From IMG/VR virus record IMGVR_UViG_3300035498_000944: 59,558 bases of DNA. The stretch is one strand, 5' to 3'. Below, in pieces: positions 7,978 through 53,603 of the stretch. Source of the stretch: a virus (Duplodnaviria > Heunggongvirae > Uroviricota > Caudoviricetes). The stretch's first letter is position 1. The number at the start of each line of letters is the position of its first letter. The notes under the pieces were generated by a model. That model was not told the origin of the DNA and searched no databases. It saw nothing but the letters and a program-made list of their open reading frames with translations. Position numbers and translations under genes: made by a program.

Positions 7978-8001
7978 AGGGGAACACTTAAGTATTCCCC
8001 T
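7978..8001 (-). terminator. GC-rich hairpin with TTAAGT at the apex (terminator-like, weak U-tract)
   Basis: Minus strand AGGGGAATAC-TTAA-GTGTTCCCCT then TTGTT, just after the stop of 8014..8391. Confidence 0.65.
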
Positions 8002-8013
8002 ATGTAGTAAATT

Positions 8014-8391
8014 TTAGTCATCTGCCAAGTAATTTTCAATAGAAAAGCTATTACCCACTGTAGCAAGTGCTGGAAATGTCAACTGATAGGCAGTATCTCT
8101 ATCCCCATTAATAGCCAATACAGTATTGTCGGAAAGCATGATAAAACCATAAAGTGAATCTGAGTACTCTGATGCAATAACTTTAGCAATAGCACCAAAG
8201 TAACTTTTACAAGATTCCCTAGACAGGGTAAGCTCCTCAAAGCTAGCACCTCTCAAGAACTCTGACATCATGACCCATTCTTCAACCTCACCAAGATCAT
8301 TCTCTGCTGTTACTGAAGTGTCAGTACACTGAAATATATCAGTAGCTGTACCACTCTCATCAATGCAAAAACCAACTATAAAATCATTCAT
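8014..8391 (-). CDS. Hypothetical acidic protein
   Basis: 125-aa ORF with AAGGAGG RBS, flanked by the promoter motif and a hairpin. Confidence 0.75.
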   Translation of the reverse strand: MNDFIVGFCIDESGTATDIFQCTDTSVTAENDLGEVEEWVMMSEFLRGASFEELTLSRESCKSYFGAIAKVIASEYSDSLYGFIMLSDNTVLAINGDRDTAYQLTFPALATVGNSFSIENYLADD

Positions 8392-8427
8392 TTCGTTTAC
8401 CTCCTTAGGTATATATTCTTTATTGTT

Positions 8428-8465
8428 TCATTATATATGGATATGGAACTTCTTATTTTTCTGAG
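8428..8465 (-). promoter_or_regulatory. Putative element-specific promoter, copy 1
   Basis: Minus strand CTCAG-AAAAATAAGAAGTTCCATA-TCCATATATAATGA; same geometry at 34091 and 54683. Confidence 0.75.
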
Positions 8466-8479
8466 ATTTAAAAACTTTT

Positions 8480-9841
8480 TTATTCTTCTGCTATGTTTCT
8501 AAATAATTTTATGTAAGGAACTGAAAAATAACTATCAGGTCGTTTATTCTTCAATTTTTTCTTTGTGTGTATCTCATTGATAGAAAAGTAATCATCTACA
8601 ACACAGGTAATAAATGTACTATTATAAATTGTTGAATCGTCAATAATACATTGAGTTAATTTAGAGTTACCAAATACTTTTGAATTACTGAGTAGAGTAG
8701 TTCTAACTAATTTAGCATCACCGAATACTTGACAACCTCTGCAAACTTTAGAATATACATCTACACGACAATCACCCTCTTGAGATAAGCATGAGTAGTC
8801 AAATATGTAACCACCTAGAGTTCCATCAATATATTTTATTCTATGTAATCTTTGACCATTGTAAACTAGAGTATCATTCCTACTCAACACATATTTGTTT
8901 CTAGGTTCTGATATAACAGACTGTCTACAATTTAAAATTACACCATCATAAATTTTATTAGTATATTCATTACCGTAAACATCAGCATTTAAAACCTTAT
9001 TAGTAAATCTATCCGATACACAGCATACTCTACTATCTTTAATACTAGCACACTCTATTCCAGGACAATCCTCAATTGTAGAATTAATTATTGTAGAACT
9101 ATCAATGGTAGAATTTCTTATAGTAGAATTTATAATAGTTGATACATAACTTATTTTAGCATTAGCATCTAGATGACTGTGTATGATGTAACCACCATTA
9201 ATAACACTAGGATTATGTCTATCCATACTGGAATCTTTAGTCATCACAGCACCTTTAAAGGGCTCTAGACTATCACTTATAGAAGCATACTTCTTATCTA
9301 ATAAAGTGTAGTGTATAGGATAGAGCACAGTGCCCATGTATGGAGTTCCTTCAAATAAATTGAGGAAGTATCCTTTAAAATTCTGATACGTGAAGTCAAG
9401 CATCTCAGCTGTAGGATCCTTTATATTTACTATATTATCTTTACTGCGCAATAAAGATAATTTACATAACTTCTCACTAGGATCATCTATCTCAGAAATT
9501 ATAAATGGGTGATTCACCAACAGTCTTTTTAACCTTACATCATCATCTGTTTTAAAATCTGATAAATCTACTTCAATATCTGCAGGATTTAAAGTGTTGT
9601 ATCTATTATAAATATCTATCAAATACTCTATACAATCATCATCTGACATATCTTCTTGAAAGTCGGTATTTAAATAATTGCACCACTGCTTAACCACTCT
9701 AGCATAATCGGGTTTTAAATTAACCATATTATGAGCTAACTTTCCGGCATACAGGTTTATGAAGGCCCTAGGGTATAGTGCTTCACAAACTACATATTGA
9801 CGTATTTCAGTTTTTAACATCTTCCCACTTTCCTTCTTCAT
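8480..9841 (-). CDS. Hypothetical protein with C-terminal phage-type beta-helix-like repeats (real start may be 9820)
   Basis: LHRIKY..GTLGGYI....LSQEGDCRV followed by VFGDAKL/VFGNSKL repeats resembles a common phage beta-helix module; STIINSTI repeats in the middle. Confidence 0.6.
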   Translation of the reverse strand: MKKESGKMLKTEIRQYVVCEALYPRAFINLYAGKLAHNMVNLKPDYARVVKQWCNYLNTDFQEDMSDDDCIEYLIDIYNRYNTLNPADIEVDLSDFKTDDDVRLKRLLVNHPFIISEIDDPSEKLCKLSLLRSKDNIVNIKDPTAEMLDFTYQNFKGYFLNLFEGTPYMGTVLYPIHYTLLDKKYASISDSLEPFKGAVMTKDSSMDRHNPSVINGGYIIHSHLDANAKISYVSTIINSTIRNSTIDSSTIINSTIEDCPGIECASIKDSRVCCVSDRFTNKVLNADVYGNEYTNKIYDGVILNCRQSVISEPRNKYVLSRNDTLVYNGQRLHRIKYIDGTLGGYIFDYSCLSQEGDCRVDVYSKVCRGCQVFGDAKLVRTTLLSNSKVFGNSKLTQCIIDDSTIYNSTFITCVVDDYFSINEIHTKKKLKNKRPDSYFSVPYIKLFRNIAEE

Positions 9842-11198
9842 GGTTCCACTTTTTGTTGCTGGTACGATTACCAGCTGTTACATTTAAGGCAGTTACACTT
9901 AACCATAATATGAAAATAAAAACATTTGGTTTGGAGTCTTTAATGTCTTTAGGAATATTTTTAAACTTCTCTGTATCACCAATGTTACCAACTACTTGAA
10001 CAAGTATATCTTTCATTTCGACATCATAAAGCATGAGAAGCTTTGAAAGTTTAGCCACAGCCTTATTATATTTACTGTCAGATTCACGTGCATAAATATC
10101 CAAAGAACACATTATTATTGAGCGTAAGGTTTCACGTGTCTTAAACTCATAATAATTCTGTTCCTGTTTTATAACTTCTGGTGCATGTTCACAAACATTA
10201 AATTTGTTAGAGACAGCAGCTCTCCACATGTTCAATATAGTCTTGTCAACATCGAAACTTAGAATAAGTTTATTATTCTTAGCACATTCTTCTAGTACAG
10301 CTGTAGCTCCTTTTGTACGCATAGGATATGCAGCAGCCATACGGATGAGTATATCATCATCAAGAAGTTCATAAGCTCTAAGTTTAGGATTAAGAACCTC
10401 TTTAAGATTCTCATCAGAAAGGAATACTGCAAGTTCTACCATTCTAATATCTCTAAACCTTGGAGGTACTTTCTCAAAAGTAATCTTCTTTAAGGAAAGT
10501 TCCCTTGCATAATAATCTCTATCGTGGTAAATACGAGATTTCTTAACTTTAGATTTCTTATATTTATATGGTGTCTTTTGAGTTTTACCCATCTGAAGCT
10601 TGAGATTAAAATAAACTTTACCCTCATAGTAGTAGTTATATTCTCTAGATGCTAAGATAATGTCTTTGAATATATTACGCACTCTATAAGATAATTGCTT
10701 ATAAGACATAAGCTCACGAATAGATGTAGGTACATCACCAAATGTGATACTCTCATTTGTCTTACCACCAAGCATTCTCACAACGATAGTATCACCATTG
10801 TATGGGTTTGTAATCTCAATATTATAATCATCAATGTCTTTTACTGATTCACGCAGAATATCAACAATATCACTAATAGGTGTATCTGGAGAATACCACC
10901 ATCCACGATAATTGTTTGGATCCCTCTGTGGTTTAGGCTTTTGTTTAGTAACTTTAATTCCTGCAGCACGACAGAATGATATAATATCTATATCAGACAT
11001 TACATCAAATTTCTCAGCGTCTCTGATCTTAACAGAACATTCCTCATATATTGTGTTGAGGAGCTTCATATTTTCTTCAGCTTCTACCAATTTTTCAGGA
11101 TTTTGCATATAGCTATCTGGATGCCACTGCTTACTGTAAGTCCTGTATTTGTCACGTAACTCTTTCATAGTCGTGCACAAATATAAATCGTCAAACAT
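9807..11198 (-). CDS. J-domain (DnaJ-type) protein
   Basis: N-terminal ELRDKYRTYSKQWHPD...AEENMKLLNTIYE with the HPD motif; remainder unrecognised. Confidence 0.8.
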   Translation of the reverse strand: MFDDLYLCTTMKELRDKYRTYSKQWHPDSYMQNPEKLVEAEENMKLLNTIYEECSVKIRDAEKFDVMSDIDIISFCRAAGIKVTKQKPKPQRDPNNYRGWWYSPDTPISDIVDILRESVKDIDDYNIEITNPYNGDTIVVRMLGGKTNESITFGDVPTSIRELMSYKQLSYRVRNIFKDIILASREYNYYYEGKVYFNLKLQMGKTQKTPYKYKKSKVKKSRIYHDRDYYARELSLKKITFEKVPPRFRDIRMVELAVFLSDENLKEVLNPKLRAYELLDDDILIRMAAAYPMRTKGATAVLEECAKNNKLILSFDVDKTILNMWRAAVSNKFNVCEHAPEVIKQEQNYYEFKTRETLRSIIMCSLDIYARESDSKYNKAVAKLSKLLMLYDVEMKDILVQVVGNIGDTEKFKNIPKDIKDSKPNVFIFILWLSVTALNVTAGNRTSNKKWNHEEGKWEDVKN

Positions 11199-11218
11199 TT
11201 TGTACTTCCTCCTTTTAT

Positions 11219-12286
11219 TTACTGATCTAAAGAATCTACCTTATATTGAATGCAATTCAGTAATATGGTTGCCATTTCAGCTCTAGAGAGATTTGACTTA
11301 GGATGAAAATTATTTTCTGTATCACCTGTCATCAAGCCTAGATCTTTTAAAGTATGAATCTCTGATTGATAATATGATGTATATGTGTCATAGAAATCTG
11401 ATGTGTTAAATGTAGGAGATGTTCGCTCAAATCCATACATTTGATATATGATATGAGCAACTTCTTCACGAGTAACTTTTTGAGTCACATCCACCATATT
11501 TACATCAAATCCTAATATATCGCCATATAACCAACTAACAGCATCAGCACACCATGCATTACTACCTTCATAATAGAAAACTGTTTGCACTTCTGGATTA
11601 TTGTTATACCTATACAAGATATACGCTAGCTCAGCTCGTGTTAATGACTTGTTTGGTCTAAATTCATATTTAGTCAAACCTATCATTAAATTTCTTGAAT
11701 ACACATCTAATATGTTATCAGTATACCAAGCGTTACTGATATCTACTAGAGGACATGATACTGTCTTAGGATAATAATCTAAATTGTAATTACCAAATAC
11801 TCTAAATCCGTAATCCTCTCTGGTAAATATAGAGGCTGCATACTCACGTCCGTCAGCACCTGTATATGCAGGAACAATTAAAGGATTGTTAGAATCAGCA
11901 TACTCAAATTTAATAATATCATTAGCAACAGTATTGTCATTAGATGTGATTATTAAGTTATATGGACCACCTCTAGAAGTTATGGTTCCATCAACATTCA
12001 TACCATCTGGCGGGTCAGTAACAAAGTTAACAGCAAATTCAAATAATTGATCTTTATATCTAACCTGTATTATTTGTCTACCAACCTTATCCTTATCATA
12101 AGCACCTACCATATCTTCTGTAACATAAACAATCTTACCTTCATCGCTTATGTACATATTGTCAAAATCTATTTCAGTTCCAACAGGAAACTCGTTAGAA
12201 TAATAAGTTGTAACTAATTCAGCTGCACTTACTGAAGCAGTGCTTATACTTAAGAATGCAAATATACTTATTAATAATTTTTTCAT
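11219..12286 (-). CDS. Secreted S-layer homology (SLH) protein with an Ig-like domain
   Basis: Signal peptide; Big_3-like YDKDKVGRQIIQVRY; three SLH repeats (FRPNKSLTRAELA, VTREEVA, FHPKSNLSRAEMA). Confidence 0.88.
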   Translation of the reverse strand: MKKLLISIFAFLSISTASVSAAELVTTYYSNEFPVGTEIDFDNMYISDEGKIVYVTEDMVGAYDKDKVGRQIIQVRYKDQLFEFAVNFVTDPPDGMNVDGTITSRGGPYNLIITSNDNTVANDIIKFEYADSNNPLIVPAYTGADGREYAASIFTREDYGFRVFGNYNLDYYPKTVSCPLVDISNAWYTDNILDVYSRNLMIGLTKYEFRPNKSLTRAELAYILYRYNNNPEVQTVFYYEGSNAWCADAVSWLYGDILGFDVNMVDVTQKVTREEVAHIIYQMYGFERTSPTFNTSDFYDTYTSYYQSEIHTLKDLGLMTGDTENNFHPKSNLSRAEMATILLNCIQYKVDSLDQ

Positions 12287-13164
12287 AATCTTTTTCCTAT
12301 AAGGTCAACACCAGGCAGACGCTCAAATATTTTATCACCTGCAGCATCGATATGCTCAATAACATAAACATTAGGTATAAGTTCATTTAATAAACCATTA
12401 AGTGATGAATACATATATTTTAAATCTACATAATATTTATTACTTATTGATTTATGTATAGTTATAATCTTAAAAATCTTTTCGCTCAGATCATATATCA
12501 AGAGAGTATCGCCAACCTGAGCACCAGTTAAAGTATACTTCTTAAAATTATTACATTTGAAATATTTTAGGTTTCCTTCAGATCCTTGTATATATAACAC
12601 CTTTCCTGCAGCAACTCTTTTAAGAACAGAATTTACTTCACTTATAGACATAATTGTCTGGGAATCATTTTTAGAATAATATACTGTATCCCCTACTCTA
12701 ACATTCTTTGGCTTACACCAATCTCTATCATTATTACGCTCAGTTGTCGAGAAACAGAACTTAGCAATCTTAGTAGGTGTGTTATACTCACAAGGTGATT
12801 TACTGGAAAGAACTTTATATTTATAAAGCATACCTGTTAAATCGACACAAATAAGAATATCATTTTCCTCTATTATGGAAGCTCTTGGAACATAAACATA
12901 TTCAGCTTGTCCGGAGAAATCATCCACAGCCTTAACAGCCATAAGATATGATGTACGCTTTATATCATTTGCAATATCGTCATTTAGATATGAGTAAACA
13001 ACCTCATTACCAATTAGATTAGGATACTGAGTATTAAGTTCCTGTGAAACACTTCCTATAAGAATATCATTATCAGAAGTTTTTACAGCCACCTGCTGAC
13101 CTATGTGCAAACGCTCAGAAGATAAAGCTGAAATTCTGCTATTACATTTTATTTCATAAAGCAT
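12283..13164 (-). CDS. Hypothetical protein
   Basis: 293-aa ORF abutting both neighbours. Confidence 0.7.
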   Translation of the reverse strand: MLYEIKCNSRISALSSERLHIGQQVAVKTSDNDILIGSVSQELNTQYPNLIGNEVVYSYLNDDIANDIKRTSYLMAVKAVDDFSGQAEYVYVPRASIIEENDILICVDLTGMLYKYKVLSSKSPCEYNTPTKIAKFCFSTTERNNDRDWCKPKNVRVGDTVYYSKNDSQTIMSISEVNSVLKRVAAGKVLYIQGSEGNLKYFKCNNFKKYTLTGAQVGDTLLIYDLSEKIFKIITIHKSISNKYYVDLKYMYSSLNGLLNELIPNVYVIEHIDAAGDKIFERLPGVDLIGKRL

Positions 13165-13620
13165 TTATTTGCCTCCCTTACTATAAGATATGTTTACAGT
13201 CTGTGTACTGTTATCATAAGAAAGAGAGTATAATTTATTTTCCTCATCACGCATAGATTCAACGAATGCTCTAAGCGGAATGTAAGGAACTGTATTATTT
13301 ATATAATCAGATCTAGCATCTGAAGCATAACAGAGCAAACCATCTTCATATACAGGAACTTCTTTTATCTTATTAGAGTATACATGGTAACCATTCTTAT
13401 AAATAACTTCGTGAGAAATTGCATTATAGGTAACTTCACCACCAGGTATCTTACCCAATGCAGAATAGTTTATTAGTAGTCGCCCATTTCTATTTACAAC
13501 ATCAGAACCTTGAGCGATAACTGTATTGCCAAACTTTATTGTATAGTTATAGGCATATGTTGGCAAGGACATACCTATAATTGTTGCAGTAGCAATTATT
13601 ATTGAAATGAGCTTTTTCAT
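13165..13620 (-). CDS. Secreted copper-amine-oxidase N-terminal (stalk)-like protein
   Basis: Signal peptide; GRLLINY..LG...GGEVTYN and PYIPLRAFVE....SYDNSTQTVNI. Confidence 0.7.
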   Translation of the reverse strand: MKKLISIIIATATIIGMSLPTYAYNYTIKFGNTVIAQGSDVVNRNGRLLINYSALGKIPGGEVTYNAISHEVIYKNGYHVYSNKIKEVPVYEDGLLCYASDARSDYINNTVPYIPLRAFVESMRDEENKLYSLSYDNSTQTVNISYSKGGK

Positions 13621-13649
13621 TATTAAACCTCCTTAATGAAAATTAATTA

Positions 13650-13713
13650 CAATATATTACGTATGAATCCGAAGGTAATATACTGTAAGAGATGGGATAA
13701 ACTTATCCCATCT
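13650..13713 (-). terminator. Twin hairpins closing the pilin cluster
   Basis: Plus strand AGATGGGATAA-AC-TTATCCCATCT (13690-13713, overlaps the stop of 13703) and CAATATATTAC-N14-GTAATATACTG (13650-13685). Confidence 0.55.
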
Positions 13714-15004
13714 GATATATCGTTGAATCTGGATGATAACCTTTTCTAGCAGCTTCCTGTCTACTAGCTAATGTTATACATTTTGTATATGTTCCAGTAG
13801 CAGGTTTTGTATAACCGTAATATTTGCTGTCATCATCTTTAGTGTAACAATAAATTGGTTTTGCTACAACTAATTCAGCACTAGATATAGAGTAGTTACT
13901 TAAAGGTCTGCTTGTATGATAAGGATCATAATCCTGTATTAATACAATCAACGTTAAACCTTTTAGTGATACTGCTGAATACTTAGTGTCTTCTTCAAAT
14001 TGTGTAGGAATGAAGAATTCCTTATTATCATAAACATCCTTGGCTTTATTAACAAGATGCTCTGTCGCATTACATATCTGCTCATTTATTTTCTGAGAAT
14101 TATGAATGTAACATCTAACCTTATCTGATGCAGATGTAGCACCTTCTGGATAGAAGTATAATGTACCATCTTCTACAAGTTCGAGACTAGGTATGTAGTT
14201 AAGTCTATCAGCACCTTTATCAATATTAGAGGTGTCTTTGTATTTTATGTAAGCTTCACTACCATTTGCTTTATAAGAATTGTAGTCCATTATGTAAAGA
14301 TTCTTTCCATTTATTTTATCCAATACAACAAATGGATAAGATTCTTTTAACAACTCTTTTCTATCAGGATCAGTCTCACCTTTTATAAGAGTTGTTAAAG
14401 CTTTTACTTTAACAGTAGAATTACCAACAGGTTTTAATTCTTCATCAACCAAATTACGAGCATATGGTATTTTCTGTGACCATGAGTATCCACTTTGACG
14501 TTCCGTATTCTTTATGAAATCTTTATAATAGGAACCTATGGTTGTACTGCCCTTTATATAAGGATCAGTTGTTGAACCTATAGGGAAATACTTAAACTGT
14601 AATTTGTCTTTATCAGAAGAGTCAAGATTATCATAACTTACAAATGTACCATAATAAGGTTCCTTTAAATACATACCATCATTTACTGCTAAGACGGCTG
14701 CAGGTGTAGCAAATTCAAATGCACTTTCTTCAAAGTCACCACCAGTGTTCATACCTGAAAGAAATACTTTCTTATAGATATCCCATACAGATGCTGCGTC
14801 TATTTCACTTTCACCCTCGGCATTAATCTGACCATTTGCTCTAGCTACTTGCATAGCAGCATCATTGGCATGGTTCATCATAGCAGACATACGAAGCTGA
14901 GCAAACTCATCATATGAATCTCTCTCATAATCAATTAAAAGAATAGAAAGAGATACAAGAATAATCAAAGGATATATAAGTACTAGAGAGAAGAATCTAT
15001 TCAT
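13703..15004 (-). CDS. TadG-like tip/minor pilin
   Basis: N-terminal TM followed by MMNHANDAAMQ helix; last and largest gene of the pilin run. Confidence 0.55.
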   Translation of the reverse strand: MNRFFSLVLIYPLIILVSLSILLIDYERDSYDEFAQLRMSAMMNHANDAAMQVARANGQINAEGESEIDAASVWDIYKKVFLSGMNTGGDFEESAFEFATPAAVLAVNDGMYLKEPYYGTFVSYDNLDSSDKDKLQFKYFPIGSTTDPYIKGSTTIGSYYKDFIKNTERQSGYSWSQKIPYARNLVDEELKPVGNSTVKVKALTTLIKGETDPDRKELLKESYPFVVLDKINGKNLYIMDYNSYKANGSEAYIKYKDTSNIDKGADRLNYIPSLELVEDGTLYFYPEGATSASDKVRCYIHNSQKINEQICNATEHLVNKAKDVYDNKEFFIPTQFEEDTKYSAVSLKGLTLIVLIQDYDPYHTSRPLSNYSISSAELVVAKPIYCYTKDDDSKYYGYTKPATGTYTKCITLASRQEAARKGYHPDSTIYQMG

Positions 15005-15006
15005 AC

Positions 15007-15540
15007 TTATTCACCTCCGTCATTACGCACCATACGAGATGTACAGATTACATGATTAGATGAATCAATACCTGTAACACTTTTAACAACACGTTGTCCT
15101 GAAGACACGTTCAAAGGTGTCATTTCAATCGTCACTATGTCACCAGCTTTGAGTTTTACTGATGTAGCATCTGCAGATATAGAACCAACGTTTCCTTTTG
15201 TGATAGCTGTATCTGTTTCACCATCCCATTTGTATACTACAACATAACCTGATGATGTAGTTGTAGATGAGTCACTTACAGGCTGATAGTCAAGTCTTTC
15301 TACAGTTATAACTGTATTATAGAGGACAGGAACCACAGACATGTTTGTTTGGAAATCATCGAAATCTTCCTGTGTTATGAGTCCTTTATCTGATACTATA
15401 TCTGTATATAATTCAAGATAATTCCAACTCATACGTTCACTTCTTAAATTACTTATAGATACCTCACTAACCAATGGGATACCTATTAACAGAGCAAGGG
15501 CTAAAACAACGCCTATAACTCTTGATATAAACGATACCAT
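15007..15540 (-). CDS. TadE-like minor pilin
   Basis: N-terminal hydrophobic helix; TDIVSDKGLITQEDFDDF segment resembles Clostridial Tad-locus proteins. Confidence 0.55.
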   Translation of the reverse strand: MVSFISRVIGVVLALALLIGIPLVSEVSISNLRSERMSWNYLELYTDIVSDKGLITQEDFDDFQTNMSVVPVLYNTVITVERLDYQPVSDSSTTTSSGYVVVYKWDGETDTAITKGNVGSISADATSVKLKAGDIVTIEMTPLNVSSGQRVVKSVTGIDSSNHVICTSRMVRNDGGE

Positions 15541-15552
15541 TTAAAGACCCCC

Positions 15553-16071
15553 TTAATCAGTTGTGGTATAAAATAATAGAGTACCATCTTCATCAACTAT
15601 ATCAGCACTATAAGAATCTGATACAGGAATATATGAACCATGACCACTATTATCATATCCTAAGTTCTCCCAAAGATCCTCAGAATAAGTAGATAACCAA
15701 GGTACTCTTCTAGAATTTAAATTTATGTTGCCAGTAGTTCCTACAGCTTTAGAATATCTGAAACTGAATTGCTTTAATTTAGCAGAGGAATCTACAACAC
15801 CATCATTCTGCGTTTCAGAATAAACATTTACTACTTTGTCTGCAGGATTCACTAAACCCATGCAAGCTATTTGATATCTGTTAAAGGATTCTATAACATC
15901 ACCTTCTGCATAGGCATCAGATTTTACACTAGACTTTTCAGTTAGTATTCCAAATCCTAAAGATGGATCATTCAGCAACTTAACATAAGTAGCATAGACA
16001 AATGATAAACAAGATACTATTACTATCAAAGTTATCATAACATCCAATACTGAATCAACTGTACTTCTCAT
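15553..16071 (-). CDS. Pilin-like protein
   Basis: Short leader plus TM helix; 172 aa; in tandem pilin run. Confidence 0.5.
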   Translation of the reverse strand: MRSTVDSVLDVMITLIVIVSCLSFVYATYVKLLNDPSLGFGILTEKSSVKSDAYAEGDVIESFNRYQIACMGLVNPADKVVNVYSETQNDGVVDSSAKLKQFSFRYSKAVGTTGNINLNSRRVPWLSTYSEDLWENLGYDNSGHGSYIPVSDSYSADIVDEDGTLLFYTTTD

Positions 16072-16505
16072 GAAACTTCCCCCTTATCAACCAATATCAA
16101 AACATCCTCAGCATTACCTGCAGTTTCGGCTGGTACATACATCAATGAGTAATTATGATTTGTATATAGACTATTAGGATCAGTTTTCTTATTTATAGGT
16201 ATACTTGTAGAAACAGTATAGTAAGTTGGATGAGCAGGTAAAGCGGCTGTTGTATTAACACATACAAAAACTTTGGAACAATATGTACGAGCAACATTAA
16301 TAGCCTGTACACCATAATAATTTTCTTTCTGTGTTAGCTCTTCCAATTCACTAGAATAATTTGGATAAGAAGCTTCTATCTTAGCATCCGCCTTATCTGC
16401 TATAAATTGTCCAGTCACCATCTGATATACACCTATGGAAATTACGACACATGTTATAAGTATAGAAATTGCTACGGCCATTCCTTCATACCATTCACCA
16501 TTCAT
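16068..16505 (-). CDS. Pilin-like protein
   Basis: MNGEWYEGMAVAISILITCVVISIG N-terminus resembles the paralogs; YYGVQAI aligns with VSGQKVI. Confidence 0.55.
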   Translation of the reverse strand: MNGEWYEGMAVAISILITCVVISIGVYQMVTGQFIADKADAKIEASYPNYSSELEELTQKENYYGVQAINVARTYCSKVFVCVNTTAALPAHPTYYTVSTSIPINKKTDPNSLYTNHNYSLMYVPAETAGNAEDVLILVDKGEVS

Positions 16506-16523
16506 TTACAGCACCTCCTATAC

Positions 16524-16955
16524 TTAACTATTCTTTACAACACTTACACCATTTATTTCACCATTCTCATCGACAATAAGAGACGCTGAATAAGTGGTGT
16601 TATAAGAGATGTTCAATTTAGAACGCACATTAGCTGCATTATCATAACCAGCTTTCAAACTCTTTATAACTGTAGGAGTTCCTGTACCAGTACTATAAGT
16701 TACATAGAAATAGTCTTCCTCATAGGGAACTTCTGATAAGACAAGCGATATAACTTCATAGTCAGATAATGTAGTGTTGTCATATTTATTATATTTTACA
16801 TACATTTCTTGTAGCTGTTGATTCTCCACCTCATCATTATGAACATTAACAACACCCTTATAAAGATTCAATTGTGTTATAAATATTGCAATAATGAGAC
16901 TAGCGGCAATTACTTCAATAGCTATCATAATAGCATCATTTACACTATTTTGCAT
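16524..16955 (-). CDS. Pilin-like protein
   Basis: TM helix plus YNKYDNTTLSDYEVI, paralogous to YAEYDGTKVSGQKVI. Confidence 0.6.
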   Translation of the reverse strand: MQNSVNDAIMIAIEVIAASLIIAIFITQLNLYKGVVNVHNDEVENQQLQEMYVKYNKYDNTTLSDYEVISLVLSEVPYEEDYFYVTYSTGTGTPTVIKSLKAGYDNAANVRSKLNISYNTTYSASLIVDENGEINGVSVVKNS

Positions 16956-16973
16956 AATATAAGCACTTCCTCA

Positions 16974-17510
16974 TTAACTTTGATTGTTAGGTATTTGTTT
17001 AAAATAAATAGCTATTATTGTTCCATTTGCATCATGGATAAGTTTAGCTTCAAATTTACCTGCAGGATTTACATAGGTTGCAGTATTCTTTATGTCCACA
17101 GTAAGGTCTTTGCTAGTAATCAAGTTTTCATTATTAGCAGGTGTTAAAACAAATCTAGCATCTGCAATTTCTGAATCTGCAATTATTTTATCAATATTAG
17201 CACCATAGGATCTCTGAATAGATCTTGTATAAATATGAGCTTCTGTAGTATCCAAAGGTGAAATAAGAACAGCCGTATCTGTTCTTGAAAACTGTTGTAT
17301 TGCACCTATAACTTTTTGCCCTGATACTGTTGTACCATCGTATGCTCTATAATAATCATTTTGTACTTTAGTCATGGTAGCATATAAACGTTCTTCTTCT
17401 TTTTCAGAGCTACTATTTACTATAAACACGATACCCATAACCATACTAATGACAATACAACATACTATTACAACGATACCATTTTTAGCAGCATCACTCC
17501 AATTAGTCAT
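16974..17510 (-). CDS. Pilin-like protein, closest paralog of 17694..18209
   Basis: MTNWSDAAKN vs MTDWSDGIKN; YDGTTVSGQKVIGAIQQF vs YDGTKVSGQKVIAAVQQY; FEAKLIHDANG vs FKATLIRDTNE. Confidence 0.65.
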   Translation of the reverse strand: MTNWSDAAKNGIVVIVCCIVISMVMGIVFIVNSSSEKEEERLYATMTKVQNDYYRAYDGTTVSGQKVIGAIQQFSRTDTAVLISPLDTTEAHIYTRSIQRSYGANIDKIIADSEIADARFVLTPANNENLITSKDLTVDIKNTATYVNPAGKFEAKLIHDANGTIIAIYFKQIPNNQS

Positions 17511-17625
17511 AAAACCACCATCTTAAAAATACTTGTAATAGATTAACCAAATATAGTTTCTGTAGATAAAGTAATCTTTTCTATATCACAAATTCAACTT
17601 CTCTTTATTACTTTATCGACAAATA

Positions 17626-17649
17626 GGAGGGTTCACTTAAGAACCCTCC
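17626..17649 (-). terminator. Perfect 9-bp hairpin with TTAAGT loop after the probable major pilin
   Basis: Minus strand GGAGGGTTC-TTAAGT-GAACCCTCC then TATTTGT. Confidence 0.7.
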
Positions 17650-17693
17650 ATTGAGTTTATTTACAACACGATATATAAATCAGTTATTTGTTA

Positions 17694-18209: not shown

Positions 18210-18260
18210 AATACATCCACTCCTTAGAATTTTAATTTTGTTTTTGCAGTAAGTTTATGT

Positions 18261-18334
18261 TACTAAGATCTTGCGATAAGAACTACACATCCTAAGCTCA
18301 AATCTTAGTATTCTTTTCTCGAGTAAAGAATACT
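18261..18334 (-). promoter_or_regulatory. Structured leader: two overlapping inverted repeats
   Basis: Plus strand AGTATTCTTT(18307-18316)/AAAGAATACT(18325-18334) and TACTAAGAT(18261-18269)/ATCTTAGTA(18302-18310) share 4 nt. Confidence 0.5.
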
Positions 18335-18359
18335 TCTAAAGAGACATACTGTACTATAA

Positions 18360-19295: not shown

Positions 19296-19304
19296 TATTT
19301 ACCT

Positions 19305-33275: not shown

Positions 33276-33374
33276 TGAGCATACCTCCTTGTATTATTTT
33301 ATTATATAGGTTAGTCTGTAGATTTAGACCATAATTAGTGTTTCGTTGCAATATACGAAAAACGAAGTCACTAA

Positions 33375-33402
33375 GAGAAGATACAACTTAATGTATCTCC
33401 CC
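33375..33402 (-). terminator. 11-bp hairpin (with G-U pairs) with TTAAGT loop
   Basis: Minus strand GGGGAGATACA-TTAAGT-TGTATCTTCTC; the wobble pairs work only on the minus-strand RNA. Confidence 0.65.
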
Positions 33403-33821
33403 AAAAAGTTTTGATTGTGTGTTTCGATTACAAACAATTAAGTTGTAAAATAACACGAAAAATATATAAAATAAGAAATGATTAGATGTAGTAATATGTG
33501 ACATATAAATCTTAGCAATAAATATGCATCACCTTAGCATCTAATTTGAAATCTGGTTTTGCTAAACTTGTATACATATCTGGAAATAAAACCCCATATT
33601 TTATTAGTAATTCTCAGCAACGCCATAACAAATCCAATTGCATAGAAGCAATACTACAAAGCAAAATTGTTTCACGTAAAACTCTAATAAGTAATCTTAC
33701 ACTCTGTCTATAACGTTGTTTTTAAGATCAATAAAATAGCTTCACACAACTCGTCAGCACTACAGCTTATGTACACAACCGAACAAGCAAAACGAAGAAA
33801 AGACTTAACTTAGAAATATGG

Positions 33822-34094
33822 TTAGTTCTCATAATCCGATGGCTTACACAGAAATTTTATTATGACTAAAATAATTGTGGCAAGTAAAGCACCACGCCAG
33901 TCTAATAAGGATTGTACGCCAAGTAAATACATACACAATGAAGCACCTGTCAAAGCAACAGATAATACCAACATTTCGTTTAGATTATTCAAAGGAATTA
34001 AATACATATCTCTTACACTGATTTTTATTATGTAAAAGATAAACTTAATTATCTTTTGAGCGTCAACTTTCACTACCTCTTTCTCCTTTCTCAT
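33822..34094 (-). CDS. Small membrane protein (real start probably GTG at 34073)
   Basis: Two TM-like segments. The ATG at 34094 lies inside the promoter motif, while AAGGAG sits 9 nt before GTG 34073. Confidence 0.62.
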   Translation of the reverse strand: MRKEKEVVKVDAQKIIKFIFYIIKISVRDMYLIPLNNLNEMLVLSVALTGASLCMYLLGVQSLLDWRGALLATIILVIIKFLCKPSDYEN

Positions 34095-34128
34095 TATATA
34101 TGGACCGCTAGTTATTTATTTCTCTGAG
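34091..34128 (-). promoter_or_regulatory. Putative element-specific promoter, copy 2
   Basis: Minus strand CTCAG-AGAAATAAATAACTAGCGG-TCCATATATAATGA. Confidence 0.75.
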
Positions 34129-34136
34129 TTTTCTGA

Positions 34137-44031: not shown

Positions 44032-44531
44032 TTATAACCAACCATCCTCATCTGTATCCCAATCTGGAATGTCATAAGGATAATGTGGGTCATTTACATC
44101 AATTATTTTATCAGGTGTCCTAGACACATAATACTGATCATTACCACAAACTGCATGAGTCCTACACATTACTTCAAATAGATCGTTGTATTTTAAACCA
44201 ACTTCTTCGAGCAATGGATATAAGTCTGCACGTCCCTCTGGGATAGTTCTTTGTGTCACAAACATAGGAACATAATGTCTGATATATTCATCTTTATGTA
44301 GTGTTTCGTCTACACCAGCTATACTGATATAGTGTCCTTTGATTCAAGGTATTTACAATTGTCCCATATGAATCGTATGACCCAATCAGAATCACCAGAT
44401 AGACTACTATATTCCTCAGTTATTGTTGCAACAGGAATTGACTTGTACATAATATATGCAGTTCTAATTCTATCAATATGTTCAATGCGTCTATTTACAT
44501 CATAATCTCTAGGAAGTTTATATTTAGTCAT
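44032..44531 (-). pseudogene. HipA-partner (antitoxin-like) gene split by a 1-nt deletion
   Basis: ORFs 44319..44531 and 44032..44265 join into ...LESKGHYISIAG...MFVTQRTIPEGR if one A is added to the AAA at plus 44338-44340. RTIP..R...L...GL...DLFE..C.T...D.YY resembles partners of HipA-like kinases. Confidence 0.65.
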
Positions 44532-45436
44532 TAATTAACCTCCTAACTTCTTTATAAGAATCTTCTATTGATAATCTTTCAATAATATGAAGGTATCTCA
44601 TACAAACTATTTCAATATAAAATCGTTTATAAATTTCAGGTATAAAATCAGATATGTCATTTACAACAAGAACTATGTTTTTATATATAGTTTCTATACC
44701 TAAATTATTTCTAAAATAATCTAGTCTACTATTTAATAATGAACTTATATTTCTATCACCAATAATTTCATAATAGTTCGTTTTACGTGTACCTTTATTA
44801 ATATCGTCAACTCTAAACATAGAGGCTGGAAATCTTTCAGATCTATCAGATAAAAATTTAAATTCATCAACCTCAAATTGATTTATACTTCTGCATACAT
44901 CTGGAAATAATGAATATCTGTTATCATAAATAGGTGCTATAAGATATGTAGAACCGATCGTTAGGTATCCCCAGTTTCCATGATGACGGTCTCTATTTCC
45001 AAGTATAGCGTCACAGATATACATGTCCCAAAAAATGTTTTAGCATCTTAACTTTCATGTCTTTGGATAACTTAAGATGTTTATTAATTAGATATATAAC
45101 ATCATCGTATGTATATGTTTTATTAGAGATATCTGTATCTTCACTTGACTGCCTTGTATCCTTAAAAGATCTTAACGATATATTAGGAGATGTAAAGTCT
45201 CTCAATATAGTTACAAGTTCTTTCTTATAAAATCCAAGCCATGTTTCATGACATGGTATTTTTAAGGATCTTATAAATCTTGAAGCGATATGTTCACTGT
45301 ATAAAGCCGATATAGAAGATTCTTTGTGTTTTACAATATAGTTATACTTATCAACAGTTATACCAAATTTTAAAGAGTTGCCATCATATAATTTACGATT
45401 ACGCATTTCATCAGTTACGATAAATCCATTATTCAT
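44524..45436 (-). pseudogene. HipA/CtkA-like Ser/Thr kinase split by a 1-nt insertion
   Basis: YDGNSLK..YIVK..SEHIAS (N-lobe) and DAILGNRDRHHGNWG, APIYDN (C-lobe); removing one T from the T6 run (plus A6 at 45030-45035) gives KHFWDMYICD in one frame. Confidence 0.82.
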
Positions 45437-45990: not shown

Positions 45991-46008
45991 ATGGTAGTTT
46001 CCTCCTTA

Positions 46009-49276: not shown

Positions 49277-49294
49277 TTATGGAATAACCTCCTT

Positions 49295-50176: not shown

Positions 50177-50260
50177 ATTATCAACTCCTTCTACTTTATA
50201 ATCAGAACTTGTATTTATCTATATCTGTTGCTAATTTAATCACTACTATTATCATTCTGA

Positions 50261-52744
50261 TTAAATTTTATTCTTTCTCTGTTGACGTTGATTTTGTTTA
50301 TCTATCCAGTTTCTTTGATAGGAACCAGCTAGTTGTTTACCATATTTAAACACACCTAAGAATTGCATATAAACTACTGTACCTATTATGAAGGTTAGTA
50401 AGTAAGGAATAAGCTGTAATAGTATAAGTGTGAGATAACCAACTGCAAAAGTTATAGCTGAAGTTATATATAGCTTTGGTTTAGGTATACCTGCAAGTTT
50501 AAAGAACTTCAAAGCTGGAGTTTGAGCAACAGCATCGTTAGAGATTTTATCGTCAAGCAAATCTGTAAACGGACCATTACTAAACACAATATTAAAGGTT
50601 GCTTTAACTAACACAGGGTATCCCCATAATGCAAGGACTAAGCCTACAAAGAAACCAAGACCTTGTTTAATAAATGTTATTATATAAGCACCCATTGTTG
50701 CTAAAAGGAAAGTTAAGAATAACCTTGGTAAAAACTTAAGCAGTATCTTTAGAGCATTATCAGCTTGAGTAGGATCAATGTATTTTTCCTGACTCTCTGT
50801 AGCTGGTTGTTTTTGTTGTACTGGCTGAGTTTGCTTAGGAGTACTTAACTGATTTGTCTGAGTTGACTGTTCTTTAGGTTTCTGAGCTGGTTGTGTAGTC
50901 TGAGGTTTTGTATTCTGTGAAGGCGTATTTGTAGATGTTGGATTTTTATCAGCACCTTTAACCATGTTCACAGATTTATCACCATACTTGTCAATATGCT
51001 CCTGTGTAATAGTAGTACCACTAGGTACATGAGCTTGAGCAGCAGTGACTGCTGTTATACTTGATTTATATTGATCAATCATAGACTTCATCTCAGCATT
51101 TTGAATCTGAAGATCTTTAACAACTTTAGACATTTCCGTAAGTTGTTTTTTAAGTTCATCAACTTCATTCTTAGCGTAAGGGTTAGAGGAATCTATACAA
51201 GTCTTTGTAGTTGCAGTAGCTGTTCCTGTCTTAGAAGCATGGCTGCTGGTTGACTTGGAAGCTTCTTTAATACTTGTATAATAATCACGTATTTTACTAA
51301 GCATAGATGGGGTGTGAAAACCATACATCTGCGATATTAACAATATCGTAAAAGACCATCTTATAGCAGTTTCATCAAGTTTACAACCGTAATCTTGTAC
51401 AGCCTTCATATCAGATTCAGCACACCTTAGTAACTCTTTAGAGTCTTTGATGTTCTTATACTCGGCTGTTGCAGAAGCTACTTTGTAATAGTTTAGGAAT
51501 ATGTTGTCTACAGCATCAGATAACTGACCATCTTTATACTTTACAGATAAGGCTATTAGCTTCTTTACACACTCATCTGTATCTGAAGCATAATGTTCTC
51601 TTAGATATGTATGAACAGCTTTTACTTCTTCTTTGGCAGACATACCGGATGAAGATGTAGGAGGTGTAATTGTTGTAAATTGAGCTGATGGTTTAGATGT
51701 ATTTGTAGAAGATGCCTGAGTATTTGTAGAAGATGGTTTAGTATTTGCAGAAGATGACTTAGAGGTATTTGTAGAAGATACTTGTGTATTTGAACTCTTA
51801 CCTATATTGTCCTCTGTAGCTGTTTTAACAATACACTTCTTGACTATTTTAGCATCACCATGTATGTTGTAAATAGTTATAATACCAGGTTCTATATTTA
51901 CAACTTTATTCCCTTCACCTTCAAATACAGCGTAATTAAAATCCTTTCCACTTTTATAATAATTTTTAACGAATTTAAGATCTTTAGCATCATAAAGTGG
52001 AGCTATAAACTCTGCATCTTTTATTACGTTAGTATCAGTCTTTATCCATAAATGAACTGCACCATCAGAACCGGATGGGCTAACATTGATGTATGAAGAA
52101 GCAACGCAAGCTTCGTAAGCTTTCCATCCATTTGGAGGATTCTTCCTATCCTTAAACTTCATTTGGTCTAATCTTAAAGATGACTTAGAGGATGAAGATG
52201 TTTGAGATGATGAACCTTGTGGTTTAGTAGTTGATTGTGAACTTCTAGCTTGAGAAGCTGAAGTTTGAGGCTTAGTATCTTGAGGCTTGTGAACTGTAAG
52301 TTCTGTAGGTTTAGAACTTTGTGCATTTGAAGATGACTCGGTCTTATTGCTTGGACCATCTTCTACAGTTACAATACATTTACGTTCAACTTTTATATCG
52401 CCTAAAGCATTTGCCCACCCAATCTTACCAGGGGTTATAGAGGTTACTGTATTACCAGTACCCTTTATCTCAACTATTGCTGAAGGACCCCGACCTGCTA
52501 AGTATCCTTTAATGTCTTTTACTTTGCCATTATAAAGTGGAAATACATACTCAGAGTTTGATGGTGGAAAGCTTGTAGTATTTACCCAAATTGGTATAGT
52601 TAAACTATCAGGATCACTTCTCATATATACGCATGGTGAAGCAGCAGCTAATCCTATATCTAATGCCATATATCCTGGTGGTGGCGTTTTTCTTTGTTTC
52701 CATTGCATTTGTTCCAATGATAAAGCCATATATGATTCCCCCAT
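50261..52744 (-). CDS. Large membrane protein with a duplicated N-terminal domain, S/T/Q linkers, coiled coil and C-terminal TMs
   Basis: LSLEQMQWKQRKTPPPGY and LRLDQMKFKDRKNPPNGW begin two similar ~125-aa units. Confidence 0.75.
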   Translation of the reverse strand: MGESYMALSLEQMQWKQRKTPPPGYMALDIGLAAASPCVYMRSDPDSLTIPIWVNTTSFPPSNSEYVFPLYNGKVKDIKGYLAGRGPSAIVEIKGTGNTVTSITPGKIGWANALGDIKVERKCIVTVEDGPSNKTESSSNAQSSKPTELTVHKPQDTKPQTSASQARSSQSTTKPQGSSSQTSSSSKSSLRLDQMKFKDRKNPPNGWKAYEACVASSYINVSPSGSDGAVHLWIKTDTNVIKDAEFIAPLYDAKDLKFVKNYYKSGKDFNYAVFEGEGNKVVNIEPGIITIYNIHGDAKIVKKCIVKTATEDNIGKSSNTQVSSTNTSKSSSANTKPSSTNTQASSTNTSKPSAQFTTITPPTSSSGMSAKEEVKAVHTYLREHYASDTDECVKKLIALSVKYKDGQLSDAVDNIFLNYYKVASATAEYKNIKDSKELLRCAESDMKAVQDYGCKLDETAIRWSFTILLISQMYGFHTPSMLSKIRDYYTSIKEASKSTSSHASKTGTATATTKTCIDSSNPYAKNEVDELKKQLTEMSKVVKDLQIQNAEMKSMIDQYKSSITAVTAAQAHVPSGTTITQEHIDKYGDKSVNMVKGADKNPTSTNTPSQNTKPQTTQPAQKPKEQSTQTNQLSTPKQTQPVQQKQPATESQEKYIDPTQADNALKILLKFLPRLFLTFLLATMGAYIITFIKQGLGFFVGLVLALWGYPVLVKATFNIVFSNGPFTDLLDDKISNDAVAQTPALKFFKLAGIPKPKLYITSAITFAVGYLTLILLQLIPYLLTFIIGTVVYMQFLGVFKYGKQLAGSYQRNWIDKQNQRQQRKNKI
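51699..51792. repeat. Coding tandem repeat GTATTTG(T/C)AGAAGAT, period 21-24 nt
   Basis: Copies at 51699, 51720, 51741, 51765 and a partial one at 51786; encode SSTNT/SSANT repeats. Confidence 0.8.
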
Positions 52745-52756
52745 TTAAAATTTTAC

Positions 52757-53524
52757 TTATTGTGTAACTTCATATTGGCTGTAGGAAGAATCAATAGTAA
52801 ATCCTATATTCATTGCAAAACTCCATACAGTTTCCAATTCTGTATGATCTCCCACATAAATATAAATATAGCTAATACTCTTAGGAGAAGTATATTCAAA
52901 TAATATTGCACGAAGCAACCAATCTAAAGCTTCCTTGCTCGTGTAATCTATATTCTCAATTATGCAATTATTGTTTTCTGCTAGATTATATTCATTAGAA
53001 TGAAGTGACACTCCAGTTACAACTTCATCATGAATACTTAATGTATCTACGACTGCCTTAGCTAATATATGAAAATCCTTAGTAATTGATATGTTACACA
53101 GATTATCATTCTTCAACTTAGAGACCTCTATACCAGCAGGTGTATCATAATCAATAATCATTCTGTTAGTACTTTTAAATTTTATAGTATAACTTGTCGT
53201 TATGTATTTTAATGTTATAGGTTCTATAAGCATTACTATCTTTTCAAATAATGGTGCAATCTTTTCTGATATAATAATTTTATCTAATGCATTTAATGGA
53301 ATCTCTGATGTATACCCGGCTAATACAGACACCTGCTTGCTAGGAGCTACAGAGTCATTTGCAATAACCAGTAATGTTCTTTTTATTCTAACACATACAA
53401 TATCGTATTGTAAAAGAGTTAAAGAAATGTCTTTCAACTTATGCCCTGTTACAAATCTTGTAAAAGCTAAAAGATCTGATACAGATAATATAGATCGTAT
53501 GTGCTCTAAATCACATGATCTCAT
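52757..53524 (-). CDS. Hypothetical protein
   Basis: 255-aa ORF with AAGGAGG RBS. Confidence 0.7.
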   Translation of the reverse strand: MRSCDLEHIRSILSVSDLLAFTRFVTGHKLKDISLTLLQYDIVCVRIKRTLLVIANDSVAPSKQVSVLAGYTSEIPLNALDKIIISEKIAPLFEKIVMLIEPITLKYITTSYTIKFKSTNRMIIDYDTPAGIEVSKLKNDNLCNISITKDFHILAKAVVDTLSIHDEVVTGVSLHSNEYNLAENNNCIIENIDYTSKEALDWLLRAILFEYTSPKSISYIYIYVGDHTELETVWSFAMNIGFTIDSSYSQYEVTQ

Positions 53525-53581
53525 ATGGACCTCCTTTTATAACTGTTATTAGTGATTTAATTGGAAATAATAACAATCATA

Positions 53582-53603
53582 GAGAGGTGACTTAACACCT
53601 CTC
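53582..53603 (-). terminator. Perfect 8-bp hairpin with TTAAGT loop
   Basis: Minus strand GAGAGGTG-TTAAGT-CACCTCTC, just after the stop of 53612..54577. Confidence 0.7.

Follow-up and report, generated by a model that had tools for sequence, protein, structure and literature searches.

The window, i.e. the whole 59.5-kb stretch of DNA analysed here, covers only about half of a giant mobile element that has its own RNA polymerase and also encodes a DnaB-like helicase, a DnaG-type zinc-ribbon protein (DnaG zinc ribbon) and an SSB-like protein. The minus strand of the window carries all genes; it is the coding strand of every large ORF and, throughout, the G-rich strand. Five hairpins on this strand carry the hexamer TTAAGT at their apex (Table 1). 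A sequence-only reading of this DNA had described four of them, with TTAAGT on the transcribed strand, and all four are confirmed on the minus (coding) strand; the hairpin at 34034-34057 is an added member. The hexaloop is exact, on perfect stems, in hairpins A, 34048, 33391 and B. Hairpin C had been given the same apex as the others, and the hexamer is indeed located there, but in the minimum-energy fold (10-bp stem, -18.2 kcal/mol) it is partly paired and leaves a UUAA tetraloop instead of a free hexaloop, because ACUUAAGU is self-complementary.

Table 1. Hairpins and promoter-like motifs of the window, in order of decreasing position; the numbers in brackets are site labels.
Feature	Position	Strand	Description
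Promoter-like bipartite motif	54683..54720	-	CTGAGGAAAAT-N14-CCATATATAATGA, upstream of the 321-aa gene that ends at hairpin A
Hairpin A (53595)	53582..53603	-	GAGAGGTG-TTAAGT-CACCTCTC, 8 bp
Promoter-like bipartite motif	34091..34128	-	CTCAGAGAAAT-N14-CCATATATAATGA, just upstream of hairpin 34048
Hairpin 34048	34034..34057	-	AAAAGATAA-TTAAGT-TTATCTTTT, 9 bp, AT-rich
Possible degenerate member	33413..33456	-	Small hairpin, apex C-UUAAUU-G
Hairpin 33391	33375..33402	-	GGGGAGATACA-TTAAGT-TGTATCTTCTC
Hairpin B (17640)	17626..17649	-	GGAGGGTTC-TTAAGT-GAACCCTCC, 9 bp
Possible variant	13690..13713	-	AGATGGGATA-AGTT-TATCCCATCT, strong intergenic hairpin, exact hexamer absent
Promoter-like bipartite motif	8428..8465	-	CTCAGAAAAAT-N14-CCATATATAATGA, upstream of the 125-aa gene that ends at hairpin C
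Hairpin C (7991)	7978..8001	-	AGGGGAATAC-TTAAGT-GTTCCCCT

Hairpins A, B and C are found in intergenic gaps and start 8, 44 and 12 nt past the stop codons of a 321-aa lipoprotein gene, a 171-aa gene and a 125-aa gene, respectively. Hairpin A is followed by the 255-aa and 827-aa genes and by the wall-hydrolase block. Eleven nt beyond hairpin C begins the ribosome-binding site of the first ORF (38 aa) in the RNA polymerase operon, and the RNAP beta gene comes next. Hairpin 33391 is housed in a conserved, AT-rich non-coding gap of 546 nt (33276-33821), 104 nt upstream of a 252-aa gene at the head of the replication block; it has 7 Watson-Crick pairs adjoining the loop and 11 pairs in total, two of them G·U. 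Hairpin 34048 is placed about 35-55 nt downstream of a promoter-like motif and falls within a small membrane-protein ORF (33822-34094, or starting at an in-frame GTG), at its 5' end.

The overall stability of the hairpins is high, with z-scores of -3.4 to -4.3 against shuffled sequences and energies of -14.7 to -18.2 kcal/mol for four of the five (A: -14.7 kcal/mol, z -4.1; 33391: -15.6 kcal/mol, z -4.3; B: -17.8 kcal/mol), 34048 being the exception (-6.6 kcal/mol, z -2.2). The stems, previously described as unrelated, are otherwise different, but 33391 and 34048 are near-copies that have AGATA(C)A-TTAAGT-T(G)TATCTT in common, and the 5' arms are purine-rich and GGAG-like in 4 of the 5 hairpins. 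The closing pairs vary (G-C, A-U, C-G). The G·U pairs of hairpins 33391 and C are possible on the sense (minus) strand only, meaning that the structures fit a sense-strand RNA. Sites A, B and C are 100% identical in contigs from independent assemblies and several samples and are therefore no assembly artefacts; hairpin A is identical in L009 and hairpin B in six other contigs. All in all, there are only five copies of the UUAAGU hairpin, in one strain-level lineage.

TTAAGT forms the loop of 4 out of the 17 hexaloop hairpins in the window that have a stem of at least 7 bp, as compared to 0.01 expected. When hairpins of the same kind (hexaloop, stem of at least 7 bp) were counted in 200 dinucleotide-preserving shuffles, no hexaloop was ever common to 3 or more of them; the maximum was 1 in 196 cases and 2 in 3 cases. 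The hexamer as such is not over-represented in the window (66 occurrences observed, 73.6 expected), and none of its 31 plus-strand copies is closed by a stem longer than 4 bp. The enrichment holds for hairpin apices, not for the raw hexamer, and it is specific to one strand. No Rfam 15 family matched the window at gathering thresholds, and a permissive scan of 33200-34200 gave one 13.5-bit chance match only.

A covariance model (CM), a check that the sequence-only reading had suggested, scored hairpin A at 33 bits, 34048 at 30.6 bits and hairpin C at 17 bits only, and it found the 33-34 kb orthologues in relatives, but no further strong copies in the window beyond the UUAAGU hairpins. Two further candidates are listed in Table 1. 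The hairpin at 13690-13713 (-14.1 kcal/mol, CM 11 bits only) overlaps the stop of a 433-aa gene and its apex reads AUAAGUUU; the loops at the orthologous sites in L001 and L011 are ACT and TTTCAAG. The hairpin at 33413-33456 (-8.1 kcal/mol, alone not significant) lies directly upstream of 33391, within a 37-nt segment that appears as an alignment gap in the relative described below.

The promoter-like motif occurs in three exact copies on the minus strand, with no others within two mismatches. The copy at 54683-54720 is kept in the relative (L008 9969), and the relative's counterpart of the other two is CCATATATAGTGA. Each of the three motifs is followed by a short unit containing a UUAAGU hairpin and then by a long operon without a copy of the motif, namely the wall hydrolases, the replication and pilus genes, and the element's RNA polymerase. 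Hairpin B has no motif promoter upstream.

In many respects the hairpins resemble intrinsic terminators, which have no loop-sequence requirement and whose loops normally vary freely. They are stable, GC-containing stem-loops on the sense strand, even though 34048 is weak. A terminator scan of bases 1-20000 (rule: 5 T in 8 bases), a part that includes hairpins B and C, passed only B, and the tails of all the others, read by eye, are interrupted (TATGATTGTTATT, TTGTTCAGG, TTAGTGAC) or, for 34048, A-rich; this agrees with the short or interrupted U-tracts noted before. A class of terminators with weak U-tracts that are stimulated by NusA/NusG exists in Bacillus subtilis. Hairpin 34048, within a coding region close to the transcript 5' end, is not in a terminator position.

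The searched collections contain one close relative of the element (59-77% protein identity, 73-78% for the polymerase, 74-81% for the helicase and primase-domain proteins), and it uses the same promoter motif. Its three orthologous hairpins have kept or compensated stems, and their loops are TCACAAG, CCCCTAA and TGTGAG at A, B and C, respectively. The orthologue of A is AGAGAGGT-TCACAAG-ACCTCTCT, that of B has GGAGGGTT/AACCCTCC intact with diverged flanks, and that of C is AGGGAGGTA-TGTGAG-TATCTCCCT with compensatory stem changes (GGGG/CCCC here, GGGA/TCCC in the relative). TTAAGT or TTAGGT is kept in the 33-34 kb module only: the orthologue of 34048 has an identical stem and the loop TTAGGT (CM 25.6 bits), and the orthologue of 33391 retains TTAAGT, its stem having one unpaired C·U and an A-U in place of one G·U. 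These module orthologues are all that the CM search of relatives detected, L013 scoring 26.6 bits for its orthologue of 33391. In four other lineages the gene orthologous to the 171-aa gene is followed by a hairpin, with the loops CCCCTAA, AAAT, TGGTAATCG (then TTTTTT) and TTA; the T6-tailed one, from L010, is a canonical terminator. Up to five diverged lineages have stems at equivalent gene junctions. Judging from these comparisons, the hairpins are old and ordinary and the stem is their ancient functional part, and the UUAAGU loops appear not to be old, the loops being subject to turnover between lineages (one close relative compared). A loop conserved throughout the element family, or tied to this particular RNA polymerase, is not supported: the relative, whose polymerase is 73-78% identical and which shares the promoter motif, keeps three of the hairpins with unrelated, non-uniform loops.

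In our preferred reading, to which we give a probability of roughly 45%, the hairpins would be leaky terminators or 3'-end hairpins whose apex is read by a lineage-specific trans-acting factor. The stems are most likely leaky terminators (attenuators) and/or 3'-end barriers that protect the upstream transcript. One promoter motif would drive the lipoprotein gene, in a unit ending at hairpin A, and a second one the 125-aa gene, in a unit ending at hairpin C; the third unit would consist of the small membrane-protein gene and a long untranslated stretch, with one hairpin within the gene's 5' end and a second one ahead of the operon that follows. As the long operons are without a motif copy, the polymerase would have to read through the hairpins in order to transcribe them. 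In this lineage the apex of every such hairpin seems to have been fixed to UUAAGU, and the loop is probably read by something specific to the lineage. We infer a trans-acting reader because an identical, asymmetric hexamer on different stems needs selection for a sequence-specific partner; such a factor (a protein, possibly an RNA) could bind the apex and tune read-through, processing or stability at all sites together. The earlier suggestion of a protein-read RNA element is in line with the strand specificity, the sense-strand G·U pairs and the terminator-type positions, but a reader was not found: Pfam and PHROG searches with 68 ORFs of the window revealed no RNA-binding or antitermination domain. 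More speculative, and in our opinion rather doubtful, is an extended version of this scheme, in which the hairpins would be the cis sites of a new lineage-specific, loop-reading regulator. It would act as a gate for the read-through that leads from three single-gene promoter cassettes into the operons for RNA polymerase, replication/pilus and wall hydrolases of this self-transcribing element, the loop having spread from the ancestral 33-34 kb module onto pre-existing, unrelated terminators (convergent recruitment into one regulon).

An unlikely alternative is that the hairpins are not terminators at all but loading sites of the nut/boxB type, where an element-specific protein binds UUAAGU on the nascent RNA after the first gene and rides the polymerase through the long operon. 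The layout promoter, one gene, hairpin, long operon occurs three times and mirrors pR-cro-nutR of lambda, one copy is at a leader position about 35-55 nt past a promoter motif, and, like the boxB/N pairs of lambdoid phages, the identity of the loop is specific to the lineage. However, no common boxA-like linear motif is visible by eye in the 70 nt on the 5' side of the five copies, most stems are 8-11 bp long as opposed to 5 bp in boxB, and hairpin B lacks an upstream motif promoter. In addition, relatives keep the hairpins without a common loop, one of them as a canonical terminator, so the core role is independent of the loop. N-like, NusG-like or N-type (arginine-rich motif) proteins had no Pfam or PHROG match among the ORFs of the window, which is about half of the element; N-type antiterminators are small, poorly modelled proteins. 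About as improbable is the absence of any reader, i.e. a purely structural convergence on UUAAGU as a self-structured, stable or nuclease-resistant hexaloop. The independence of the core function from the loop in relatives is compatible with this, and GGGTTAAGTCCC, present in every E. coli 16S gene, places the same hexaloop on a GGG/CCC stem, a conserved hairpin (GGG-UUAAGU-CCC) of the 3' major domain of 16S rRNA, so that UUAAGU is a naturally used loop. Yet relatives under the same constraints use many loops, from 3 to 9 nt or more, the closing pairs differ, and as many loops would be equally stable, an exact convergence on one asymmetric hexamer would be unexpected; no support for a special stability of UUAAGU was found in the literature.

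The hexamer might also act in DNA, although we consider this still less probable: hairpins on the G-rich lagging-strand template or on the transferred strand would offer TTAAGT to the replication machinery (the DnaB-like helicase and the DnaG-type zinc-ribbon protein) for priming or loading. The element does encode these two proteins and the SSB-like protein, one copy lies in the conserved non-coding gap that immediately precedes the replication genes, and all copies are on one strand, which is G-rich; since all genes share that strand, RNA and single-stranded DNA are inseparable by orientation. On the other hand, the extended stems need G·T pairs, and these are weak in DNA, the placement follows stop codons and promoter units and has no replication spacing, five sites per 59.5 kb are too sparse for general priming, and the loop is not shared by the relative at three sites in spite of its 74-81% identical helicase and primase-domain proteins. 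That the pattern is due to chance, or to a single duplicated hairpin without function, is very improbable. Duplication explains part of the count, as 33391 and 34048 are near-copies, but A, B and C have orthologues in the relative with the same stems and other loops and were not made by copying one hairpin; chance is opposed by the shuffle test and by the expectation of 0.01.

The orthologous hairpins, with their kept stems and, in this lineage, one uniform apex, amount to a clean experiment done by nature, and its outcome points to a partner acting in trans. Such a partner could act on several operon boundaries together, including the one directly before the genes of the element's own RNA polymerase, and so coordinate read-through or the fate of the RNA. 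Should a reader exist, an uncultivated family of giant gut elements would have a new regulator of transcription or RNA fate, which could be searched for with the five sites as a ready set of cis elements. If there is none, the loop sequence on terminator hairpins would be selectable for structural reasons.

It is useful to compare the hairpins to known systems. The sequence-only reading had drawn an analogy to the processive antitermination system ConAn of plasmid pLS20, and at first sight there are similarities, such as long one-strand operons on a Gram-positive-type mobile element and internal terminators that have to be read through. ConAn consists of one leader RNA of 260-600 nt (conAn2, with a GC-rich region and SL1) and the ConAn1 protein at the operon start, the RNA being placed after the conAn1 gene, and it bypasses terminators whatever their sequence (PMC8191782). 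Here, as opposed to a single leader RNA, the repeated signal belongs to the terminator-like hairpins, which are 22-28 nt long and dispersed over five sites; no ConAn-type leader RNA was evident after the three promoter motifs and a ConAn1-like gene was not found. Membership in this system is therefore not supported, and the analogy with it fails. The hairpin GGG-UUAAGU-CCC of 16S rRNA has the identical hexaloop on a short Watson-Crick stem, but the closing pairs, the stems and the mRNA context differ here, and with no evidence linking the two it is a lead only. The nut sites of lambda (boxA and boxB, with the N protein) are similar in as much as there are several hairpin copies per genome whose loop is the part that is recognised and is conserved among copies (here TTAAGT at all five apices), they are located behind a promoter or behind an operon's first gene, and the loop specificity varies among related elements. 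They differ in that neither a boxA-like motif nor an N-like protein was found here, most stems are longer and are not the same in all copies, relatives have the same hairpins with unrelated loops, and the polymerase may be the element's own. Intrinsic terminators and attenuators differ from the present hairpins: here one hexamer forms all five apices, and the U-tracts are poor, with one copy within a coding region near the transcript 5' end. The overall architecture is nevertheless terminator-like. A few nt past the stop codon there is a stem of 7-11 bp that contains GC pairs, flanked by A-rich sequence on the 5' side and by U-rich, if interrupted, sequence on the 3' side, and several lineages keep the hairpin behind the same gene, one of them with a clean T6 tract. 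As in attenuators, a strongly promoted first gene precedes the hairpins and a longer operon comes after them.

The sequence-only reading had listed four hairpins with different stems and the same TTAAGT (UUAAGU in RNA) at the apex; their coordinates are correct, and the hexamer lies on the sense (minus) strand in each. An exhaustive scan of this strand for perfect stems of at least 7 bp with loops of 3-10 nt yielded 71 hairpins, five of which carry TTAAGT at the apex, and the fifth (34048) was missing from the earlier list. TTAAGT forms the loop of 4 of the 17 hexaloop hairpins with stems of at least 7 bp (0.01 expected from the hexamer frequency), the remaining hexaloops occur once each, and a hexaloop common to at least three hairpins of such stem length was never obtained in 200 dinucleotide-preserving shuffles. 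The hexamer itself is not generally enriched in the window, as 66 copies were observed versus 73.6 expected, and on the plus strand it occurs 31 times, with a closing stem of 4 bp at most. The hairpins are otherwise ordinary and of terminator type, but the apex that they share is unusual, and this regularity is real and statistically robust. A restriction-site explanation was rejected because just two of the five copies contain CTTAAG.

Coordinates and sequences of the hairpins and neighbouring features (window positions unless a stretch is named)
Feature	Position (strand)	Sequence in window	Closest relative	Location or content
Hairpin A (53595)	53582-53603 (-)	GAGAGGTG-TTAAGT-CACCTCTC	AGAGAGGT-TCACAAG-ACCTCTCT	begins 8 nt past stop codon of 321-aa lipoprotein gene
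Hairpin B (17640)	17626-17649 (-)	GGAGGGTTC-TTAAGT-GAACCCTCC	GGAGGGTT-CCCCTAA-AACCCTCC	begins 44 nt past stop codon of 171-aa gene
Hairpin C (7991)	7978-8001 (-)	AGGGGAATAC-TTAAGT-GTTCCCCT	AGGGAGGTA-TGTGAG-TATCTCCCT	begins 12 nt past stop codon of 125-aa gene
Hairpin 34048	34034-34057 (-)	AAAAGATAA-TTAAGT-TTATCTTTT	stem unchanged, loop TTAGGT	within start of small membrane-protein ORF
Hairpin 33391	33375-33402 (-)	GGGGAGATACA-TTAAGT-TGTATCTTCTC	TTAAGT retained; one C·U mismatch; one G·U to A-U	in 546-nt non-coding stretch
Motif copy	54683-54695 (-)	CCATATATAATGA		motif, lipoprotein gene, hairpin A
Motif copy	34091-34103 (-)	CCATATATAATGA		motif, hairpin 34048, 546-nt non-coding stretch with hairpin 33391
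Motif copy	8428-8440 (-)	CCATATATAATGA		motif, 125-aa gene, hairpin C
Small hairpin	33413-33456 (-)	apex C-UUAAUU-G	37-nt segment missing	adjoins hairpin 33391
Non-coding gap	33276-33821 (-)		~82% identity	upstream of replication block
38-aa ORF	7833-7949 (-)	MIKAIFSS...MYLMEYNLL	conserved	between hairpin C and RNAP beta gene
10-bp hairpin	7858-7883			inside 38-aa ORF
171-aa and 178-aa genes	16974-17510 and 17694-18209 (-)			flank hairpin B
453-aa ORF	8480-9841 (-)		no counterpart in syntenic region	hexapeptide-like repeats
HipA-like kinase	44524-45436 (-)	two ORFs (141 aa + 166 aa)	single 305-aa gene, L008 15954-16871, PF07804	apparently split
Tex-like protein	L012 20019-21755			Tex_N, YqgF, HHH and S1 domains; directly after RNAP genes

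The four hairpins listed earlier have fold energies of -14.7 to -18.2 kcal/mol (z -3.4 to -4.3), and hairpin 34048 is AT-rich and folds weakly (-6.6 kcal/mol). The best fold of hairpin C is a UUAA tetraloop on a 10-bp stem, since ACUUAAGU is self-complementary. Hairpins 33391 and 34048 have nearly the same sequence around the loop. The sequence scanned for this element comprised the 59.5 kb window and, from short contigs identical to it, about 4 kb more, and sites A, B and C are 100% identical among contigs of several independent assemblies. Samples that contain the strain are JGI 3300035495/97/99 and SRR11792166, SRR11792607 and SRR11792608. With a covariance model derived from four copies, no additional convincing member turned up in the window, and Rfam gave no match. 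At the hairpin sites of the window and in L001, L008 and L011, many 5' arms are rich in purines and resemble Shine-Dalgarno sequences (GGAGGG, GAGAGG, GGGAGG), with matching CCUCC-like 3' arms, which may reflect no more than the G-5'/C-3' bias that terminator stems usually show on a purine-rich strand.

All large ORFs of the window lie on the minus strand, which is G-rich throughout at a GC content of ~33%, and they include divergent RNA polymerase beta and beta' subunits, a DnaB-like helicase, a DnaG-type zinc ribbon, secretion-type ATPases and wall hydrolases. A promoter-like bipartite motif occurs here three times, each time as an exact copy of CCATATATAATGA preceded 14 nt upstream by CTSAGRRAAAT. 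The sense strand of the window holds no fourth CCATATATAATGA copy even with two mismatches allowed, and the motif is kept in the closest relative. A short unit begins with each copy and has a UUAAGU hairpin inside it or at its end. The motif does not recur in what follows the three units, namely the wall-hydrolase block, the RNA polymerase operon and the replication/pilus block, and the ribosome-binding site of the polymerase operon's first ORF starts 11 nt past hairpin C; we therefore infer that polymerase reads through the hairpins, which cannot be complete stops. The 38-aa ORF that follows hairpin C is hydrophobic and is also conserved in the distant lineage L011. Several blocks of the 546-nt gap are near-invariant, and part of it is an AT-rich run. 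The gap has no Rfam match and a fold z-score of only -1.9, and it could host a non-coding RNA, a long leader or an origin.

The closest relative is a 202-kb Logan contig, the sole close relative in the collections searched. Word-indexed searches with two hairpin-flanking proteins returned this lineage and one relative and nothing else, and a similar search with beta returned one close relative plus bacterial RpoB. The comparison was made on three stretches of the relative (L001, L008 and L013) that are equivalent to almost the whole window, and its proteins are mostly 55-92% identical to those of the window. At site B the stem is intact within flanks of near-random divergence, and at site C the stem shows compensatory changes. 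Run on the relatives, the covariance model matched the two 33-34 kb orthologues only.

More distant lineages were found by an exhaustive beta search, and in the three examined (L011, L010 and L012) beta is 36-43% identical. A five-sequence beta alignment brought up only relatives of at most 29% identity, which are jumbo phages and giant viruses. Megablast of 24 kb of the window against phage and plasmid collections gave no match, and a search for related loci in viral contigs with the lipoprotein or beta found nothing. In all three lineages a strong hairpin again follows the orthologue of the 171-aa gene, with the loops AAAT in L011, TGGTAATCG in L010 (where TTTTTT comes next, as in a textbook terminator) and TTA in L012, and L010 and L012 also have hairpins upstream of beta. 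These lineages are informative on hairpin positions and too divergent to polarise the history of the loop. The 171-aa and 178-aa genes look like paralogues, because both match the same gene in the three lineages; a hairpin follows the upstream copy in five of five lineages, which suggests that its product is highly expressed.

Because the stems are kept across lineages while the loops differ, the stems are ancient and have been selected, and the loops drift as a rule. Among the lineages compared, the uniform apex belongs to the window lineage only. The common ancestor of the window and its relative already had the UUAAGU loop at the 33-34 kb module and, on parsimony, three pre-existing hairpins would have acquired it later in the window lineage. 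With one relative compared, the loop may instead have been lost there.

Pfam and PHROG searches with 68 ORFs of the window detected neither an RNA-binding nor an antiterminator domain. Of the large ORFs, only the 453-aa ORF is clearly lineage-specific, and it looks like an insertion specific to the window lineage just upstream of the 8428-8465 motif. As a reader of the apex it is no obvious RNA binder, since it has hexapeptide-like repeats and matches the putative transferase PDB 2f9c only weakly. A kissing partner was likewise rejected, as sense-strand ACTTAA copies are not loop-presented except in the UUAAUU hairpin, whose apex is one base off the shared loop. The window has no tRNA genes, and a literature search on UUAAGU produced nothing relevant. 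The Tex-like protein of L012 is transcription-associated and RNA-binding; none was seen in the window.

RNA is favoured over DNA as the acting form, because the G·U pairs of the extended stems form only on the sense strand, and two further indications are the replacement of G·U by A-U from one lineage to the other and the placement after stop codons and in promoter units. A single-stranded-DNA signal has some room, since all genes share the strand of the hairpins, and we consider it improbable. The simplest reading is a loop-independent, family-wide role, in which the hairpins would act as leaky terminators or protect 3' ends. The same apex on different stems would in addition require a putative sequence-specific partner, acting on UUAAGU in the window lineage. 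It is rather unlikely that the hexamer is purely structural, even though a conserved hairpin of 16S rRNA, GGGTTAAGTCCC, which is found in every E. coli 16S gene, has UUAAGU as its loop.

The analogy to ConAn, the processive antitermination of pLS20 suggested earlier, fails on its defining features, as ConAn employs a single leader RNA and one protein and bypasses terminators whatever their sequence (PMC8191782). Sites resembling lambda nut are also an unlikely reading, which would leave unexplained why the same hairpins function elsewhere without a common loop. Although no boxA-like motif, as in nut sites, was seen by eye in the 70-nt 5' flanks of the window hairpins, the layout and the lineage-specific loop are alike in the two systems.
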